From positions 23,582 to 87,581 of the forward strand of contig DYGI01000002.1 of NCBI GenBank assembly GCA_020724805.1: a stretch of DNA of 64,000 nt, given 5' to 3'. Below, piece by piece: positions 1 through 9,450 of the stretch. The position numbers and the translations under genes are program-made. The notes below the pieces were generated by a model. It saw nothing but the letters and a program-made list of their open reading frames with translations. It ran no database searches and was not told the origin of the DNA. The stretch comes from Candidatus Microgenomatus sp. Lineage in GTDB: Bacteria > Patescibacteriota > Minisyncoccia > UBA6257 > GWB1-50-10. The first letter of the stretch is position 1; the number at the start of each line of letters is the position of its first letter.

Positions 1-186
1 AGATATTGGAAACTTATCAAAGAATTCAAAGAAGTGACCGGCATTCCGATGCTTCTCAATACCTCATTCAATCTAAAAGGGGAGCCGATCGTAAACACTC
101 CCGAAGAAGCGTACCACACCTTCATGCGGAGTGGGCTTGATGTGCTGGTGATGGGGAATTATGTAGTCACGAAGCGCGCTACTTAA
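1..186 (+). CDS. Carbamoyltransferase (NodU/CmcH/HypF-like), C-terminal fragment; the 5' end lies outside the window
   Basis: Frame 1 reads RYWKLIKEFKEVTGIPMLLNTSFNLKGEPIVNTPEEAYHTFMRSGLDVLVMGNYVVTKRAT*. The LLNTSFNxKGEPIV...P.EA motif is the conserved C-terminus of this family. Stop TAA at 184-186. Confidence 0.5.
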   Translation, partial: RYWKLIKEFKEVTGIPMLLNTSFNLKGEPIVNTPEEAYHTFMRSGLDVLVMGNYVVTKRAT

Positions 187-1243
187 TGGAAAGCGTGCTG
201 AGTATGAGCGAGTTTGAGAGTATCTGGAACCCCGCGATGGCGGAAACGAGGAGCGCGTCAAAGGCGCCTGCGTCGGCACCGAGGAGCTTAAGTGCCAAGG
301 GAATGAGTATAAGGACGGCTCCCGCCGTAAGCGCGGTTTTGAGCCGGAAGGTCGCGTAGAATTTTCTCACGAACGGGACGTCCTCTTCGAACCGCGTGTG
401 GAGATAAGTCTTGGCGAAGAGTCCTACAAAGAACATCTGAACGCCGACGAGGGGGAAAAGTATTTTCACGGTTGCCGCGTTTAAAAATGTGCCGCCGGCT
501 TCATTCAGCGAAAGCCCGAGCGCTCCGAGCGCGAAGAGAATTCCGCCGGTAACGAAATATACGGAGAGTGGTGCCTGGAGTGCGATGTATTTAAGGTGTG
601 CGAAGCCGTCACGATAAGGCCGTAGTTTCGACGTGCCTCTCCGCGGTCGATACGTGATAGGAACCTCCGCATACGTGAGGCGTTTCTGCTTCGCCTTTAT
701 TAGCATTTCGGTTGCGAATTCCATCCCCGAAGTTTTAAGTGCGAGCGTGTCGTAGGTCGATCTTTTGAGTGCACGGAAACCCGACTGGCTGTCTGAGGTG
801 CGGATGCCGAAGAAAACGAAAAGGAGAAGGTTCAGTACGGGTGTGCCGAAGTAGCGATGGAGAAACGGCATAGCGCCAGGAACTATTGTGCCGTCGAGAC
901 GACTTCCGATCGCGATGTCCGCACGTTCAAGCGCTTTGAGGAGCGAGGGGATGGTGGAGAGGTCGTAGGTGCCGTCGGCATCAGAGTAAATTATTATTTC
1001 GCCGCGGGCGCATGCGATACCTTCACGGAGTGCGGTGCCGTAGCCGTCTTTCCCGTGAGGCACCACCGCGGCGCCGGCTTTCGTCGCTATGGCGGCGGAG
1101 CGGTCGCGTGAAGAATCCGCGACGATAATCTCGCCTTCGATGTGATGCGTTGCGAAGATTGTACGTGCTTCCTCTACGCAGCGTGCCACCGCAGCTTCCT
1201 CGTCGCGGCATGGGAACACGACGGAGACCGCAATTCGCTTCAT
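179..1243 (-). CDS. GT2 polyprenyl-phosphate sugar synthase (GtrB/ArnC/Dpm1-like) with C-terminal TM helices
   Basis: 354 aa. The N-terminal GT-A fold carries DAD/DxD (YSDADGTYD) and DSQSGFRA motifs. About 4 hydrophobic helices follow at the C-terminus. It is divergent from the GT-C gene at 1271. Confidence 0.8.
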   Translation of the reverse strand: MKRIAVSVVFPCRDEEAAVARCVEEARTIFATHHIEGEIIVADSSRDRSAAIATKAGAAVVPHGKDGYGTALREGIACARGEIIIYSDADGTYDLSTIPSLLKALERADIAIGSRLDGTIVPGAMPFLHRYFGTPVLNLLLFVFFGIRTSDSQSGFRALKRSTYDTLALKTSGMEFATEMLIKAKQKRLTYAEVPITYRPRRGTSKLRPYRDGFAHLKYIALQAPLSVYFVTGGILFALGALGLSLNEAGGTFLNAATVKILFPLVGVQMFFVGLFAKTYLHTRFEEDVPFVRKFYATFRLKTALTAGAVLILIPLALKLLGADAGAFDALLVSAIAGFQILSNSLILSTLSIK

Positions 1244-1270
1244 GTAAGTGTAGGGTATAATAAAACGTGA

Positions 1271-3061
1271 ATGGTGTCGATTTTAGTGGGAATTTTGACC
1301 GCGCCCATCCTTTTTTTTCTTCCCGGTTATTTTTGGTCGCTCTCGTTGCCGTGGGTTCGTGGTTTCACCGTGCGCCTTGCGGTGTCGCTTGTGACGAGCG
1401 TGGCACTTGGGGTGCTTTTAAGCTACGGAGCGGCACTCTTCGATATTCCGGTTGGTGCGGCACTTTTCGCTGGATTGCTTTTGACTTCGGCGGGTTTCGG
1501 ATGGACAGTGCGGCGTAGGCTTTTTGAGGCGGTTTCCGAGTGGAGGGAAGTGCCGCGGAGCGAAAAAATGATGGCGGCAGGCCTCGTTTTTCTCTGTGTG
1601 GTGGCGGGAATTTTTGTATCGTTGCCTCATTTCGGTTACCCGTGGCCCGTCCACGGGGACGAGTGGTGGAGTGTGGGTGAGGTGCAAAATCTTTTGGAGG
1701 GGCGGTCACTTGACACTCACCCGTATTTTCTCGACCCGCTCACGAATTACAAACCGGGACTCACCGCGTATCTTTCGGGAATTTTTTCGCTGTGGCGCGT
1801 CGACCCCGTCTCCGCATGGGCCCATCTTCCTGGCGCGAACCTTTTCTTTATCGCGCTCATTTCGTCACTCCTTCTTTTTTCGATAACGCGCGATAAATTA
1901 GTCGCGCTCGCGGTTCCGGTGTTCCTCGCGGCGGTGCGGTCGAACGCGTATATGCTCGGGTGGTGGTTTTTTGTTCCTTCGACATTCGCGTTCCTTTTTA
2001 TTATCCCGCTTGTCGTCACGGTTCCGAGTTGGGCTTCAAACCGGCGCGGCGTCGTCTGGGTGCTTGCGATATTCGGAGCGCTGGCTGCGGTGTATCTTCC
2101 TTTCGCACTTTTTCTTGCGCTCGCATTCGTTCCGCTCTTTTTCTTTTCGCTCCACGGAAACGCGCGAATGATTTTTTCGATTGCGGCGCTCATGTTGTTC
2201 GCCGCGCTCGTGTTCACCGGAGCGGAGCTAAGTCCTTATCGGGAATACTGGCGCCTCTCGTCGCTGTCTGCAGCGGAAGGATGGTTTGCCGCATTCACCA
2301 CCTCATTCTTCGTTCCTATTGATGCGACGGTTCATTTCGCACAGTCTCCTGGAGCGGTGAGCGTCACCGGGTTCGGCTTGCTCGTGTTTGCGCTCGTCGG
2401 CGTATGGAAGACGTGGCGGAGCGATTGGGTGCGCGGTCTCAGGTGGGTATTGCTCGCGGCGGCAATGAATGTGACGTTGGTTATTTTCGGAGGAGTCTCG
2501 TTTTTGCTTTTTCATCAGCGCGCATTCCATCTTTTTGCGGCGATGGCGGCGCTCTGGGCCGTGCTCGGTCTTGCGGTACTCGCGCGCGAATGGTATGGGT
2601 GGGTCACAGAAAAGTGGGGGATGAGGTGGCGACGCACGCTCGTGCTTGTTTTCGCCATACTCACGCTTTCTTTTGTGTTTTTCGGTTACTTTCGGTTGCC
2701 GGCTGGCACCAGTCTCTATTTTCTCGTGAACGAGAACGATCTTGTGGCACTCCGTTGGCTCCGCGGCGAGCCTACGCTCCGCGGGTTAAAGGTAGTGGCG
2801 GATCCCGATGTTGGTACGATAGTGACCCCCCTCACGCGGTTGGTCTCCAAGGTCACTCTTCGGACGGGACAAAATACCTCTTCTGTTATTAACCCCGCGT
2901 CGGGGCGCATCTCGTTTATTGAGAGCACCTGCGAAGAGAAACGGGAATATCTTACGAGGATGGATGCGGATATCGCCTATACGCGTACCTCCCAATCGTG
3001 CCCATTTTTGGAGGAGATATTCAATACGGAAGGGGTATTTATTTACCGTATCAACAAATAA
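1271..3061 (+). CDS. Polytopic membrane glycosyltransferase of GT-C type (PMT_2/ArnT/GT39-like)
   Basis: 596 aa with about 13 TM helices. The first extracytoplasmic loop contains HGDEWW (a DE motif). There is a C-terminal soluble domain of about 100 aa. A -10 TATAAT lies at 1253-1258 in the 27-nt divergent spacer. Confidence 0.45.
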   Translation: MVSILVGILTAPILFFLPGYFWSLSLPWVRGFTVRLAVSLVTSVALGVLLSYGAALFDIPVGAALFAGLLLTSAGFGWTVRRRLFEAVSEWREVPRSEKMMAAGLVFLCVVAGIFVSLPHFGYPWPVHGDEWWSVGEVQNLLEGRSLDTHPYFLDPLTNYKPGLTAYLSGIFSLWRVDPVSAWAHLPGANLFFIALISSLLLFSITRDKLVALAVPVFLAAVRSNAYMLGWWFFVPSTFAFLFIIPLVVTVPSWASNRRGVVWVLAIFGALAAVYLPFALFLALAFVPLFFFSLHGNARMIFSIAALMLFAALVFTGAELSPYREYWRLSSLSAAEGWFAAFTTSFFVPIDATVHFAQSPGAVSVTGFGLLVFALVGVWKTWRSDWVRGLRWVLLAAAMNVTLVIFGGVSFLLFHQRAFHLFAAMAALWAVLGLAVLAREWYGWVTEKWGMRWRRTLVLVFAILTLSFVFFGYFRLPAGTSLYFLVNENDLVALRWLRGEPTLRGLKVVADPDVGTIVTPLTRLVSKVTLRTGQNTSSVINPASGRISFIESTCEEKREYLTRMDADIAYTRTSQSCPFLEEIFNTEGVFIYRINK

Positions 3062-3115
3062 AGGCTTTTCCCCAGCGTACGGCACTTTCCCTAAACTTAG
3101 GTTTGATATAATGGA

Positions 3116-3559
3116 ATGAATCGAATGGAAGCCCCGACTCAAGCGAAATCGTCCCCCTGGCTCCTTATTGTGGGAGCGGTGGTGGTAGCGTTGGTGCTGT
3201 TCTTTGTTTTTTCGGACGGGTGGGGCGATGACACATCGGACAACGGACCGTTTGGCGTTATTGTGGCGCCGACGAATGGCCTCTCAATTGTGGAGATAAA
3301 AGCGGAGGGTGGAAAATTCTTACCGAACGAGATCACGGTGAAGCGTCCCGACCCCGTCATGATTATGTTCACCGCGGTTGATGATAAATACGACATCGGC
3401 TTTGAGGACCCAAAGATAGGATTTGACGTGATTGCGGAAGTTGGTGCGGTGCAGCGATTCGGTTTCGAAACAAGCGACAAAACCCCCGGTTTCTATACCT
3501 TCCACTGCATTGAGTTTTGCCCGAAAGGTGAAATGACGGGGACGTTGAAAATAGAATAA
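3116..3559 (+). CDS. TM-anchored cupredoxin-like protein (degenerate COX2 C-terminal/CuA-like domain)
   Basis: 147 aa with an N-terminal TM helix. The C-terminus reads FHCIEFCPKGEM, resembling the COX2 CuA loop GQCSELCG..H..M. Both His ligands are missing: Tyr sits at the first His position (DDKYDIGF) and Glu at the second. TATAAT at 3107-3112. Confidence 0.5.
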   Translation: MNRMEAPTQAKSSPWLLIVGAVVVALVLFFVFSDGWGDDTSDNGPFGVIVAPTNGLSIVEIKAEGGKFLPNEITVKRPDPVMIMFTAVDDKYDIGFEDPKIGFDVIAEVGAVQRFGFETSDKTPGFYTFHCIEFCPKGEMTGTLKIE

Positions 3560-3572
3560 CCTAATTTCCATC

Positions 3573-6500
3573 ATGAAACGCTTTGCATTGCTGGTCGGGA
3601 TAATCGCCCTCTTCGGGGCGATGGTGATTGCGAGTCCGCTTGATATGGAAGAAGTAAGAGCTGCGGTGTGGGACTGGGTCCCCGGTTCGGAGAGCGGCAT
3701 CTCCGCGACTCCCACTTCGCAGTCCGCCATCAGCGTGAGTTGGGGCGAGGACTATTATTCGACCGGTCCCGAAGACCTCTACCGTTGTTCGGGGAGCGGC
3801 AGTTGTACGCCGACTTATTTTGCGAACGTTTTCCAGAGTTCGAGCTATAACAACACCGGTCTCTCGTGTGGCACTACCTATCGCTACCGTGTCTGCTCCG
3901 ACTACGGTTGTACGAGCATCGCCACCGCATCGACCGACGCTTGTACGCCTGCAACGCCGAGCACACCTTCGGCAAGTGGTACGGGCCAGACGACGATGTC
4001 GGTGACGTGGGGTGCAGTGAGTGGCGCTTCTGGCTACCACGTGTATCGAAACAGCGGCTATATCGGCGCGAGCGGAAGTGCGAGCTACAACGATTCTGGT
4101 TTGAGTTGCGGTACGCAATATGGTTACGGGATCGTGGCGTACGTAACGACGAACGGTCGCACGTATTACTCAGGTACTTCTGCGACAGGATATGGGTCGA
4201 CGAACGCGTGTCCGAGCGTGCCCACTCCGCCTTCCGGAGTCACCGCCACTCCAACCTCACAGACCACGCTCATAGTTGGATGGACCGACAACTCCGGGAA
4301 CGAAACCGGCTTTAAGGTATACAGTGGTGACGGAGTTACGCCGCGGAGCACTACTGGCGCGAATATCACTTCGGTTGAAGAAGGAGGGTTGAGTTGTGCG
4401 ACAAGCTACGACAAATGGGGGGTGAGAGCGTATAACGCGGTCGGGGACTCGAACATCGCATTCAATACCCCCCCGAGTACGCTCGATGCCTGTACGCCCT
4501 CCGCGCCTTCAGCGTTGAGTTGCAGCCCGGCCTCGCAGAGTCAGATCAACTGTTCGTGGACTGATAACTCGAACAATCCCACCACCAACTACGAAACTGG
4601 TTTCCAGGTCGAGCGATGTAGCGGATCGGGGTGTTCGGGCTACTCCCTGGTAGGTTCACCAGGTCAGAACGTCACATCCTTCTCGAGTACGGGACTTGCT
4701 TCAGGTACGCTCTATCGTCACCGTGTGCGGGCTTACGTGAGCACAAACGGGAGAACTTACTACTCTGGTTACACTGCTGTTTCAGACGCAACGACCGATG
4801 CTGCGACTCCCGGCGTTCCGACGAGCGTTTCACAGACTCCGACGGGGCAGGCGACTGTTCAAATAAGTTGGGCGGGCGGTTCGCCTTCGACCCAGACAGG
4901 GTTCCGTGTTACGGATGCGCAAGGCGTGCAGGACTATAATTCTTCGACCTTTAATGCGACCGGACTTTGCAGCACTGCGGGTGCGGCACTCTCATGTGGT
5001 ACCTCGTGCACCGCAGTCAATGTAAGAGCATATGTCGATACGAATGGGCGGCGATACTATTCCAACACAGTTACGCCGACCGCGGTTACGCTGGATGCCT
5101 GTACGCCCGCGACCCCGACCGGAGTGAGTGCAAGCGCAGTAGCCGCAAACCAAGTGAACGTGTCGTGGGGCAATGTGGCGGGAGAAACGGGATATAAAAT
5201 CAGTCGATGTACGGGGAGTAGCTGTTCACCTGCGTCGTACACAACAAAAGCAGTTGATGTAACATCGCACCCTGACGGCAGTCTCTTAGAGAACACAATC
5301 CACCGGTATGCCGTGAGTTCGTATGTATCAACGAACGGGAGGGAATATGAATCAGATCTTTCTACGGTTGCGCAGGCAACCACGCAAGATCTCGCGGTTG
5401 CCATCACTACATACTCCAGCTATGTGAACGCGGCGAACCAGGCGGCGATAGCGGTTTCCGGCACCTGCAGCGGCGGGAGCGGTACGGTGAGTATTTCGAT
5501 AACATCGACCGGTGGCGGAGGACCGGTAACCGCCTCGCCTACTTGTTCCTCCGGTACCTGGTCGGCGGGTTCTCTGAACCTTACGCCGCTTGGCCAAGGA
5601 AATCTGACCTATGCTGCAACACTTACAGTGTCACCGAACACCGCGAACGCGAGTCAGCCGGGCGTGAAAGATGTTACCGCGCCCAGTGTAACTGCGCCGA
5701 CCGACGGAGGCACCTGGACTAATAACACCTCTCTCACTTTCAGCTCAACGCCGAGCGACACGGGCGGCTCTGGTCTCTCCGATTGCACCGGTCAGATAGA
5801 CGTCAACAACACCGACGGCGCCGGCCTCGTGTTCAACGGCTCGGTGGGCACCGATGGTGACCATACGTTTGTGGGAACCTCCGGTAACACTTATTACTAT
5901 CGGGTATCTTGTACTGATAATGCGGGCAACTCGAGCGGATATACCGCGTGGACTAACGGAATCGGTCTCGACACAGGAAACCCCTCGATCACTGGCCCAA
6001 CAGACACTGGCACCTGGACTAATAACACCTCTCTCACTTTCAGCTCGACGCCGAGCGACACGGGCGGCTCTGGTCTCTCCGATTGCACCGGTCAGATAGA
6101 CGTCAACAACACCGACGGCGCCGGCCTCGTGTTCAACGGCTCGGTGGGCACCGATGGTGACCATACTTTCATCGGGACTGAGGGGAATACCTACTATTAT
6201 CGGGTATCTTGTACTGATAATGCGAGCAACTCGAGCGGATATACCGCGTGGACTAATGGGATTGGCATTGATCTTACTGCGCCCGCGTTCAGCTCGAAGA
6301 CCGCCGCATGCGGTAGCTGGCAAAACACGAACTGGGTCTCGACCTTCACCTACACCGATTCGTTCTCGGGCATCGCGTCCGGGAACAACCCCACCTGCAC
6401 TATCTCGACCGATGGGGCGAGCCAGACCTGCAACGTTACTCCGAATGTCTGCGACAACGCGAGTAACTGCAACACGACGCTTATCACGAGTAACACCTGT

Positions 6501-7175
6501 AGCGTCGACAAGACGGCGCCGACCCCTAACCCCTCCACTGGCTCCGCAGCGAGTACCTGTGCGTATGACGCCGCGACTCGCTCTATCACGTGGACCATCA
6601 ATTCTTCCACGGATGTAACTTCCGGTCTGAATAGCTCGGGTTACTCCTTTACAAACGGTTCCACCTGGCAGGCCTCAAACCAGTTGGTGGAATCGGGAGT
6701 TACTACCGCAACAACCACTAAAACGGTAAGAGCACGCGACGTTGCGGACAACCAGACGACTGCGGGTACTATAACCGCCGGTCAAGTCGTATGCATACCG
6801 CCTCCCTCGAGTGCGCCCACATCGCCTTCCGGGTCACTCGACGGTGGGCAAGGGAGCGTGCTTCTGTCGTGGTCTGAAGTTCCAGATGTTTCAGGATATC
6901 TCATCGAGCAAAGCACGGATGGTGGATCGACATGGAATTACCTACCTGATGGTACGATTTCATTAGGGTCGGTTACCACCCATCCGGTTTCGAACTATGA
7001 AAACGAATGTCCTAAGGATTATCTCTATCGCGTGATTGCTTACACGACCGATGCGAGCTCTGATAATGATACGAACTGTCCTGTGGGGCAGCGTGATAAC
7101 CGGAAATGCTCTGCTCCTTCGGCCGCCATTACGGCACAAATTCGCTATTGCACCGGGTTCTTCTTGGGAGAGTAA
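3573..7175 (+). CDS. Giant secreted surface protein with multiple fibronectin-III-like repeats and Ser/Thr/Gly/Asn-rich, Cys-containing segments
   Basis: 1200 aa. Sec signal peptide MKRFALLVGIIALFGAMVIASP. At least 7 repeats of about 95 aa follow the pattern S.SW......GY.VYR....LsC.t.Y.YrV.AY. There are many NxS/T sequons. Two near-identical 100-aa internal repeats are present. No LPXTG, T9SS or TM anchor. Confidence 0.75.
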   Translation: MKRFALLVGIIALFGAMVIASPLDMEEVRAAVWDWVPGSESGISATPTSQSAISVSWGEDYYSTGPEDLYRCSGSGSCTPTYFANVFQSSSYNNTGLSCGTTYRYRVCSDYGCTSIATASTDACTPATPSTPSASGTGQTTMSVTWGAVSGASGYHVYRNSGYIGASGSASYNDSGLSCGTQYGYGIVAYVTTNGRTYYSGTSATGYGSTNACPSVPTPPSGVTATPTSQTTLIVGWTDNSGNETGFKVYSGDGVTPRSTTGANITSVEEGGLSCATSYDKWGVRAYNAVGDSNIAFNTPPSTLDACTPSAPSALSCSPASQSQINCSWTDNSNNPTTNYETGFQVERCSGSGCSGYSLVGSPGQNVTSFSSTGLASGTLYRHRVRAYVSTNGRTYYSGYTAVSDATTDAATPGVPTSVSQTPTGQATVQISWAGGSPSTQTGFRVTDAQGVQDYNSSTFNATGLCSTAGAALSCGTSCTAVNVRAYVDTNGRRYYSNTVTPTAVTLDACTPATPTGVSASAVAANQVNVSWGNVAGETGYKISRCTGSSCSPASYTTKAVDVTSHPDGSLLENTIHRYAVSSYVSTNGREYESDLSTVAQATTQDLAVAITTYSSYVNAANQAAIAVSGTCSGGSGTVSISITSTGGGGPVTASPTCSSGTWSAGSLNLTPLGQGNLTYAATLTVSPNTANASQPGVKDVTAPSVTAPTDGGTWTNNTSLTFSSTPSDTGGSGLSDCTGQIDVNNTDGAGLVFNGSVGTDGDHTFVGTSGNTYYYRVSCTDNAGNSSGYTAWTNGIGLDTGNPSITGPTDTGTWTNNTSLTFSSTPSDTGGSGLSDCTGQIDVNNTDGAGLVFNGSVGTDGDHTFIGTEGNTYYYRVSCTDNASNSSGYTAWTNGIGIDLTAPAFSSKTAACGSWQNTNWVSTFTYTDSFSGIASGNNPTCTISTDGASQTCNVTPNVCDNASNCNTTLITSNTCSVDKTAPTPNPSTGSAASTCAYDAATRSITWTINSSTDVTSGLNSSGYSFTNGSTWQASNQLVESGVTTATTTKTVRARDVADNQTTAGTITAGQVVCIPPPSSAPTSPSGSLDGGQGSVLLSWSEVPDVSGYLIEQSTDGGSTWNYLPDGTISLGSVTTHPVSNYENECPKDYLYRVIAYTTDASSDNDTNCPVGQRDNRKCSAPSAAITAQIRYCTGFFLGE
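5699..6298 (+). repeat. Two tandem 300-bp copies inside the giant ORF (period exactly 300 bp; about 160 bp identical bar 1 mismatch, remainder about 85%)
   Basis: cacctggactaataacacctctctcactttcagctc at 5711 recurs at 6011. The protein units are TWTNNTSLTFSSTPSDTGGSGLSDCTGQIDVNNTDGAGLVFNGSVGTDGDHTF, seen twice. Confidence 0.9.
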
Positions 7176-7188
7176 TCGATAGGGATTT

Positions 7189-7677
7189 ATGGAAAAGAAA
7201 AATATTTTTATAGGTGTAGGAGCGATTTTGGTGATTTTTGGGTTGGTGTGGTGGGGTACACAGATGGATGTTCGGAATACATCACAATCCGGCTCGAACA
7301 ACAACGAGGACGAAGAAGTGATTAATAATCTCCCACTTACCCCCGCGGCAGAGGAAGTTTCATTGCCGCAAAGTGATATACGAGGTGCCGCACTCAAAGT
7401 TTTCAATATAACGATGACAAGGGGGGGGATTGTGCCTTCCTCTATTACGGTGGGCGAAGGGGACCGCGTGCAGTTCAATGTGAAAGCGGAGGATGCTCCC
7501 TATGATTTTGAGTTGGAGGTTCCACACTATAATTTCCGTCTGGACGTTATTGAAGAGGGGGAAACGCGTCCCGTTGGTTTTAATGCTGAATCGATCGGAG
7601 AGTTTTCCTTTGGGTGCAGTCAGTTATGTCCGAATAATATTCGCCTCACCGCCCAACTCATTGTTTTGGATAGGTAG
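7189..7677 (+). CDS. TM-anchored cupredoxin-like protein, paralog of 3116-3559 (degenerate COX2-like)
   Basis: 162 aa with an N-terminal TM helix. Reads FSFGCSQLCPNN (CSELC-like) with no His or Met ligands. Tyr sits at the first His position (EDAPYDFEL). Confidence 0.5.
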   Translation: MEKKNIFIGVGAILVIFGLVWWGTQMDVRNTSQSGSNNNEDEEVINNLPLTPAAEEVSLPQSDIRGAALKVFNITMTRGGIVPSSITVGEGDRVQFNVKAEDAPYDFELEVPHYNFRLDVIEEGETRPVGFNAESIGEFSFGCSQLCPNNIRLTAQLIVLDR

Positions 7678-7720
7678 TAGAAGTAGTATCTTGTAGCTGG
7701 TATTTGGTATCGGAAATATA

Positions 7721-7747
7721 AAAGCCCGAGAATTTTCTCGGGCTTTT
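7721..7747. terminator. Bidirectional intrinsic terminator between the convergent genes 7189-7677(+) and 7774-9450(-)
   Basis: AAAAGCCCGAGAATTTTCTCGGGCTTTT, a GC stem flanked by A/T runs on both strands. Confidence 0.6.
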
Positions 7748-7773
7748 CACTACTAACTACTTACTACCAACTA

Positions 7774-9450
7774 CTACCTAAGCAGGAGCATCTTCTTCGT
7801 CTGGACGAATCCATTCGCCTCCAGCCGATAGAAGTACACTCCGCTCGGCAATCCTGATGCGTCCCACGTGACGCGGTGGGTCCCCCTCTCGAAAACATCC
7901 TCGGCGAGTATCGATACTTCGATGCCAAGAATGCTTGTTACCGAAAGGCGGACACGTTCCCTCGTCGGTATGGCGAACTCGATCGTGGTCGCAGGGTTGA
8001 AGGGGTTCGGGTAGTTCTGTGAAAGCGCGAACGTTTTCGGAACTTCCGTCTCCTCGACCTTTACTACACGATCAACGCGATATTCAGGCGAATCTACGCT
8101 GTCTGTCGCGCCGTGGATATCGGTGGCGACAAGGCGGAACTGGAAGGTATGGTCGTGCAGGGCGTACGGTATCGTTCCCCACACCTCGCTCTTTGTGGAG
8201 TCTACCGAAAGCCACGAGGGACTCTTGGCGGAATCGAGCCTTACCGTGACTGGGTCGCCATCAGTATCAAAGGCGAAGTATGTTCTTTTGAAGAACGTCC
8301 CTCCGTACGTCACGGTGTCGCCAGGAGAATAAAGGAGAATCGGGCTGTGGTTTGCCGGTTTGGAAGAAAGAATGCCTCTATATATTCCCTTCCATGTTCC
8401 GACGTATACCGCCGAGTCCTTCATTACGACCGACTGGACGCTTTCTCCTGGGAGACCTAAGAGCTCCCACGTCGAACCATCATCGGTTGACCGATAGAGA
8501 CCTCCATTGCCCATTTCTTGGCACGAGAAGACACTATTGTCGGCACCGAGAACCAGGCTCCAAACCTTCACGTTCGATTTCACCACGTGCCACGTTGCGC
8601 CGTAGTCAGTCGAGCGGTAGATGTTATTGGTCTTACTAAACGGTGGCTCGCCTGGCGGAGCATTGTACAAGAGTCCGCTAGCAAGAAGGTAGTTGTTTGG
8701 GAGTTTAACAAGTGTGGTAATTGATGCTCCCAGAGTGATTCCACTCGAGGATCGTGTCCAACTATCCCCATTGTCCGTGGAACGGTACACCCCGTTCGGT
8801 AGGAATTCGATTCCTCCTGGTCCTACTGTGATGTATGATGTGTCACCGATGAATGTTAGGGATCTGAACTCTTGCCGGTCGGGACCGTGACCACTATCTC
8901 CTGCGTGGGGATTGTCAGGGATTCCGTTTGTGAGCGTGTCCCACTTTACGCCCCGGTCAGTGGAGCGGAAGAGTCCTCGCTCTGTCGCGAAGAAGAAACC
9001 GCCAGTGCTCGGATTGACGCCAAGCTCAAAGCCCCATCTTGTAGCAGGTAACCCTACGCGAGCGCCACTCATTTTTTCCCACGTGTCGCCATCGTCAGTT
9101 GACCGATGAAGTCCGTAGGGAAAACCCGCTACATAAATGTATCCGGAGTCGTCCACCGCGAAGTTCCACCCCTCGCTGTCATAAAATCCACGACTCGGCC
9201 CCACTTCTACCCATGTTTTACCGTTGTCGCGCGATTCCCAAAGCCCTGATGTGTTGGTGAATGGAATTATGCCTGCAAGGATATGTCCTCGCTTGTTTAC
9301 CATAAGCGCTCTCACATTTATGTCCCAGTTGTTCAGTACCTGCTCGAACGCGATGGTGTCAGTACTCTTTGATAAGCTCTGTCCCTCCGCCACGAAGTGG
9401 GGGACGGACGCGGCGATCAGAATCGCCAAATATTTCGTCATGCGTTTCAT
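7774..9450 (-). CDS. BNR/Asp-box repeat beta-propeller protein (sialidase/Ycf48-like) with a T9SS (Por) C-terminal sorting domain
   Basis: Six SxDxGxTW Asp-boxes (SRDNGKTW, STDDGDTW, STDRGVKW, STDNGDSW, STDYGATW, STDDGSTW). Sec signal peptide. The C-terminus ...ALSQNYPNPFNPATTIEF...GVYFYRLEANGFVQTKKMLLLR matches the T9SS type-A CTD. The ATG at 9450 is preceded by AAAGGAG 8 nt upstream. GC is visibly lower than in neighbouring genes. Confidence 0.8.
   Translation of the reverse strand: MKRMTKYLAILIAASVPHFVAEGQSLSKSTDTIAFEQVLNNWDINVRALMVNKRGHILAGIIPFTNTSGLWESRDNGKTWVEVGPSRGFYDSEGWNFAVDDSGYIYVAGFPYGLHRSTDDGDTWEKMSGARVGLPATRWGFELGVNPSTGGFFFATERGLFRSTDRGVKWDTLTNGIPDNPHAGDSGHGPDRQEFRSLTFIGDTSYITVGPGGIEFLPNGVYRSTDNGDSWTRSSSGITLGASITTLVKLPNNYLLASGLLYNAPPGEPPFSKTNNIYRSTDYGATWHVVKSNVKVWSLVLGADNSVFSCQEMGNGGLYRSTDDGSTWELLGLPGESVQSVVMKDSAVYVGTWKGIYRGILSSKPANHSPILLYSPGDTVTYGGTFFKRTYFAFDTDGDPVTVRLDSAKSPSWLSVDSTKSEVWGTIPYALHDHTFQFRLVATDIHGATDSVDSPEYRVDRVVKVEETEVPKTFALSQNYPNPFNPATTIEFAIPTRERVRLSVTSILGIEVSILAEDVFERGTHRVTWDASGLPSGVYFYRLEANGFVQTKKMLLLR

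Follow-up and report, generated by a model that had tools for sequence, protein, structure and literature searches.

Among the closest counterparts of the locus described here are the three-component glycosylation systems (GtrB/GtrA/GtrC, CsbB/GtcA/YfhO, GacI/GacL, ArnC/ArnT and GT136; PMC11127046), in which, likewise, a membrane-associated GT2 enzyme of the polyprenyl-P-monosaccharide type has a polytopic GT-C enzyme as its partner and both are encoded in or beside a surface-glycan gene cluster. The present locus departs from them in having no recognisable flippase gene nearby (the annotation shows none of the GtrA, MATE or Wzx type within 10 kb), in a GT-C protein that falls outside their sequence families (no YfhO, PMT_2, GtrC or ArnT match) and in the apparent co-transcription of that protein with the gene of a giant secreted protein instead of with glycan genes. 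Streptococcal GtrB with PgtC2 (PMC12041528) and actinobacterial Ppm1 with Pmt (GT39) also couple a polyprenyl-P-hexose synthase to a GT-C enzyme in monoderm bacteria, and they share with the present GT-C a DE-type acidic pair in the first outer loop; their targets are the Ser/Thr-rich stretches that secreted or membrane proteins expose outside the cytoplasm. Other counterparts are the oligosaccharyltransferases STT3, AglB and PglB (GT66; with Haloferax AglJ), which are 700–870 aa long against 596 aa here: the present GT-C has no WWDxG, no assignable DK/MI-type motif and no Pfam STT3 match, and the sequons of the neighbouring giant protein are unconserved. The mycobacterial arabinofuranosyltransferase AftA (GT-C; PDB 8if8) is alike in length (~600–620 aa), in its use of a polyprenyl-monophosphate sugar donor and in being the top Foldseek match, but works on the galactan of a mycolate cell wall and shares only 13% identity and no sequence-profile relation with the present protein.

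The two small proteins of the locus have the cupredoxin beta-sandwich, with a Cys-x3-Cys loop at the CuA position, in common with CuA domains (COX2, NosZ), nitrosocyanin, the EfeO Cup domain and S. pneumoniae CupA, and with COX2 and S. pneumoniae CupA also an N-terminal TM anchor; the Glu ligand of nitrosocyanin aligns approximately, as judged by eye, with their invariant Asp. Unlike all of these, the present family replaces both His and the Met, its conserved set being D-x-x-Y-D and C-x3-C-P, and the genes have large surface-protein and glycan genes as neighbours instead of genes for oxidases or copper export. The Cu(I) chaperone domain of S. pneumoniae CupA faces the cytoplasm, whereas the present cupredoxin domain is predicted to face outward.

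Layout of the locus

The window, that is, the whole stretch of 64,000 nucleotides that was analysed, begins with the features collected in the table, and an ORF check found all five genes of the original prediction where it had placed them. The carbamoyltransferase said to end just upstream is indeed there; its full-length gene (7114–8916 in the source contig locus, L013) encodes Carbam_trans_N and Carbam_trans_C domains, overlaps the GT2 stop by 8 bp and is the last visible gene of a glycan-modification cluster. That cluster, which spans more than 10 kb and lies upstream of the window, also includes SGNH/AlgX-like modifying enzymes. The cassette originally proposed is thus not self-contained, and the locus is best explained as the distal end of a larger set of cell-envelope glycan genes in the genome of an ultra-small bacterium (CPR, Minisyncoccia); that it is a surface-glycosylation unit assembled from known kinds of parts is plausible.

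Features at the start of the window, with coordinates counted from its first letter
Feature	Coordinates	Strand	Length	Remarks
Carbamoyltransferase, NodU/CmcH-type, 3' end	1..186	+	part of a 600-aa protein	frame-1 stop at 184–186
GT2, polyprenyl-phosphate sugar synthase (DPMS/AglJ/ArnC/GtrB type)	179..1243	-	354 aa	
Divergent intergenic spacer	1244..1270		27 bp	TATAAT at 1252–1257, 13 bp before the GT-C start codon; read directly
GT-C-fold membrane protein, putative glycosyltransferase	1271..3061	+	596 aa	~13–14 TM helices
Cupredoxin A (CupA)	3116..3559	+	147 aa	TM anchor 15–33, extracytoplasmic cupredoxin domain
Giant secreted protein	3573..7175	+	1200 aa	signal peptide, FN3-like repeats
Tandem duplication inside the giant gene	5709..6256	+	300 bp	1.8 copies, 93% identical; Tandem Repeats Finder
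Cupredoxin B (CupB)	7189..7677	+	162 aa	N-terminal TM anchor, extracytoplasmic cupredoxin domain

From the GT-C through CupA and the giant to CupB, the genes are separated by 54, 13 and 13 bp, and a scan of plus-strand candidates placed no terminator-like site in these gaps; the candidates lie inside the GT-C gene (2078, 2701, 2901) or upstream of it (331, 675), have weak stems of 5–6 pairs and are, in total count, fewer than expected from shuffles. The four genes appear to form one operon, in which the giant would be co-transcribed with the GT-C, while the glycan genes are on the other strand.

The encoded proteins

In Pfam the GT2 matches Glycos_transf_2 (9e-20); its NCBIfam matches, to AglJ (3e-36) and dolichyl-P-hexose transferase (2e-28), do not reach the equivalog cut-offs. 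Among PDB entries it is nearest to 5mlz, the Dol-P-Man synthase of P. furiosus (6.6e-13), and to ArnC (2e-5). With a catalytic domain at residues 7–165 (DAD at ~88–90, DSQSGFRA at 150–157), four predicted C-terminal TM segments and orthologues at 44–54% identity in relatives, its assignment to the polyprenyl-phosphate-sugar synthases is well supported at the family level, in agreement with the GtrB/ArnC/Dpm1-like enzyme with C-terminal TMs that had been predicted.

The 596-aa membrane protein has a GT-C fold and is not a transporter, as predicted, but the PMT_2/ArnT likeness ascribed to it is not borne out at the sequence level: no Pfam or NCBIfam profile of any GT family, including PMT_2, ArnT, YfhO, GtrC and STT3, gives a match, and the N-terminal part has only a weak one to DUF6541 (Pfam, E 1.4e-3). 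By fold it is closest to oligosaccharyltransferases and to AftA (Foldseek E 1e-6), its C-terminal extracytoplasmic alpha/beta domain (~475–596) resembling the globular domain of AglB; the TM count and the N-out topology are inferred from charge bias only. A loop is invariant in relatives, P119-H120...H128-x-D130-E131-W132-W133, and contains the HGDEWW motif (128–133). We infer from the fold that the protein is a new, previously unclassified, lineage-restricted glycosyltransferase.

In the giant protein, a self-built profile finds seven FN3-like repeats, in line with the at least seven predicted (Pfam fn3, 3e-17): six N-terminal ones linked by Pro/Thr/Ser segments (36–113, 125–212, 216–306, 308–410, 412–508 and 511–605), then further beta-rich modules (606–1079) and the seventh repeat (1080–1164). 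The protein contains 38 Cys and 30% Ser+Thr, and the motif of its Cys-containing C-terminal end (...KCS...YCTGFFLGE) is kept in five proteins; orthologues are found in L003 (E 5e-37), L006 (E 2e-35) and L002 (E 1e-11). The tandem duplication, which is recent, gives rise to two almost identical modules of 100 aa (about residues 701–900). The description of the protein as sequon-rich holds only as a mild surplus, with 31 N-x-S/T sites where shuffles give 21.5 ± 3.8 (z 2.5), or 25 where they give 18.7 ± 3.7 once one copy of the duplication is removed; the orthologues show no enrichment (z -0.55 to 1.7), the sites mostly lack positional conservation among them, contrary to the conserved sequons that the original prediction called for, and only 3 sites have the D/E-x-N-x-S/T form. 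Most of the excess is a reflection of the N/S/T-rich composition, and with sequons unconserved and, in the orthologues, unenriched, nothing points to N-glycosylation.

CupA (starting 3 codons later in the public annotation, 144 aa) and CupB are paralogous (33% identity, E 2e-9) and are real cupredoxin folds without the CuA or type-1 His ligands. CupB exceeds the Pfam Cupredoxin_1 cut-off of 27 bits (33.6 bits, 4e-8) and CupA falls just under it (26.1 bits, 8.8e-6); CupA matches a family profile (4e-31) and has a place in subfamily alignment A5; CupB also matches nitrosocyanin 1iby (3.3e-6), and its AF2 model (pLDDT 89.5) retrieves nitrosocyanin, the EfeO Cup domain, CuA domains and the S. pneumoniae CupA chaperone in Foldseek. 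Alignments and the structural model thus agree with the predicted fold and with the loss of both His ligands: the CuA-type loops are retained (C-I-E-F-C and C-S-Q-L-C), Tyr (Y92 in CupA, Y105 in CupB) aligns with the first CuA His, no His lies at +8 from the first Cys, and the Met is absent from CupB, as had been said of one of the two, and stands at +9, not +11, in CupA. What does not hold is that the pair are degenerate local paralogs. They belong to a family of ~3,400 clusters in which D-x-x-Y-D ... C-x-x-x-C-P is strongly conserved at the old copper-site positions (D89, Y92-D93 and C131-x3-C135-P136 in CupA; D102, Y105-D106 and C143-x3-C147-P148 in CupB); in 141 representatives, Tyr takes the first His position 126 times and His only 4 times, the second is most often Lys (43) or Gly (37), with His outside the top six, and the Met is not conserved. 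Such conservation speaks for a functional site that was kept and remodelled, not for a purely structural module.

Gene order and the possible acceptor

The expectation of synteny was borne out: the divergent GT2/GT-C pair is present in 8/8 loci, with a spacer of 16–30 bp in relatives and each time on the border of a larger glycan cluster, and a giant orthologue and/or a cupredoxin lies downstream of the GT-C in six of them; the other two (L005, L016) have the GT-C without the giant. A CupB-type cupredoxin follows the giant orthologue by 9–31 bp in L002, L003, L006, L008 and L015. Both loci that share the neighbourhood and have no GT-C (L011, L018) lack the giant orthologue too. The GT2 orthologue belongs to a conserved block even without an adjacent GT-C, and is found beside a cupredoxin there. 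The adjoining clusters contain several GT4/GT2 enzymes, and in relatives GT4, a GT2-GT4 fusion and an ABC-2 exporter, the last in 7/8 loci and not within 10 kb of the present one. Taken as a whole, the original prediction stands for the GT2 type, the GT-C and cupredoxin folds and the synteny, and is unsupported or in need of revision for the PMT_2/ArnT likeness, the sequon richness, the degeneracy of the cupredoxins and the self-contained cassette.

We tentatively favour, as a possible reading, a glycosylation outside the membrane that draws on a polyprenyl-P-sugar and whose likely O-linked acceptor is the giant protein. At the cytoplasmic face, the GT2 would move one sugar from a nucleotide sugar to polyprenyl phosphate, a step well supported at the family level by analogy with Dol-P-Man synthase, AglJ, ArnC and GtrB; the lipid-linked sugar would be flipped across the membrane and used on the outside by the GT-C, with its OST/AftA-like build, the invariant D130 and E131 of the first long outer loop serving as putative catalytic or metal-binding acids. 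The acceptor, named on the basis of gene order only (operon structure and co-occurrence), would most likely be the giant FN3/Ig-type protein, and the sugar would probably be O-linked on its Pro/Thr/Ser-rich inter-domain linkers; the N-x-S/T sequons are unlikely targets because the GT-C lacks the WWDxG sequon-reading motif and the sites are unconserved. In the weakest step, the cupredoxins, with their remodelled Asp/Tyr/Cys2 site, would not be CuA or blue-copper electron carriers and would probably act as membrane-proximal partners of the accompanying large secreted proteins, either as an anchor or as a Cys/metal-dependent maturation factor. The signal peptide, the Cys and Ser+Thr content and the linkers support the giant as an extracytoplasmic substrate, its absence from the loci without GT-C counts for a link between the two, and the O-glucosylation of Ser/Thr-rich regions of streptococcal membrane proteins by GtrB and the GT-C enzyme PgtC2 (PMC12041528) offers a precedent.

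Since the locus is not self-contained and the GT2 orthologue can occur beside a cupredoxin without the GT-C, a wall glycopolymer is a serious alternative acceptor. The pair may act after polymerisation, attaching a side-chain sugar to a glycopolymer that the adjacent GT4/GT2/ABC-transporter cluster makes and that is linked to the wall. Comparable systems are GtrB/GtrC for O antigen, CsbB/YfhO for teichoic acids and GacI/GacL for streptococcal rhamnan, along with the GT136 systems; the giant and the cupredoxins would then be a separate neighbouring envelope module. This main rival is, in our judgement, rather unlikely. The edge of a multi-GT cluster, here with carbamoyltransferase and SGNH/AlgX-like enzymes and in relatives with GT4, the fusion and the exporter, is the usual setting of polysaccharide-decorating GT2/GT-C pairs; the best Foldseek match, AftA, is a polysaccharide arabinosyltransferase. 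Both points speak against the giant as acceptor, as do the GT-C genes without a giant and the GT2 without an adjacent GT-C, which also favour decoration, and the lack of an annotated flippase within 10 kb. Three-component systems of this kind are widespread (PMC11127046). Against decoration, the GT-C appears co-transcribed with the cupredoxin and giant genes and not with the opposite-strand glycan genes, the giant is missing from both GT-C-less loci, and the C-terminal domain of the GT-C resembles that of protein-modifying OSTs. Alternatively, and improbably, the GT-C could be a very divergent, oligosaccharyltransferase-like enzyme that transfers its glycan en bloc, on the model of the euryarchaeal AglJ...AglB pathway: polyprenyl-P would receive its first hexose from the AglJ-like GT2, nearby GT4/GT2 enzymes would lengthen the chain, and the monophosphate-linked oligosaccharide would be exported and passed to the giant.

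That the cupredoxins transfer electrons through a working copper site (CuA, plastocyanin-like or nitrosocyanin-like red-copper) as part of a residual respiratory chain, with no relation to the surface protein, is very improbable. Their fold and nearest sequence relatives (nitrosocyanin and the COX2 and NosZ CuA domains), the automatic naming of one family member as cytochrome oxidase subunit 2 and the electron-transfer roles that CPR papers assume for proteins annotated as cupredoxin or plastocyanin (PMC5581439, PMC12931201) count for it; the His/Met ligands are not kept, however, and no oxidase, NirK or NosZ gene lies beside the cupredoxin in the retrieved loci. Least credible of all is a 596-aa protein that is no glycosyltransferase, be it a transporter, a YfhO-like protein with another role or a Wzy/O-antigen-ligase-type polymerase or ligase: the missing sequence-level match to any GT family would allow it, but its fold is that of a GT-C enzyme, with an invariant DE loop.

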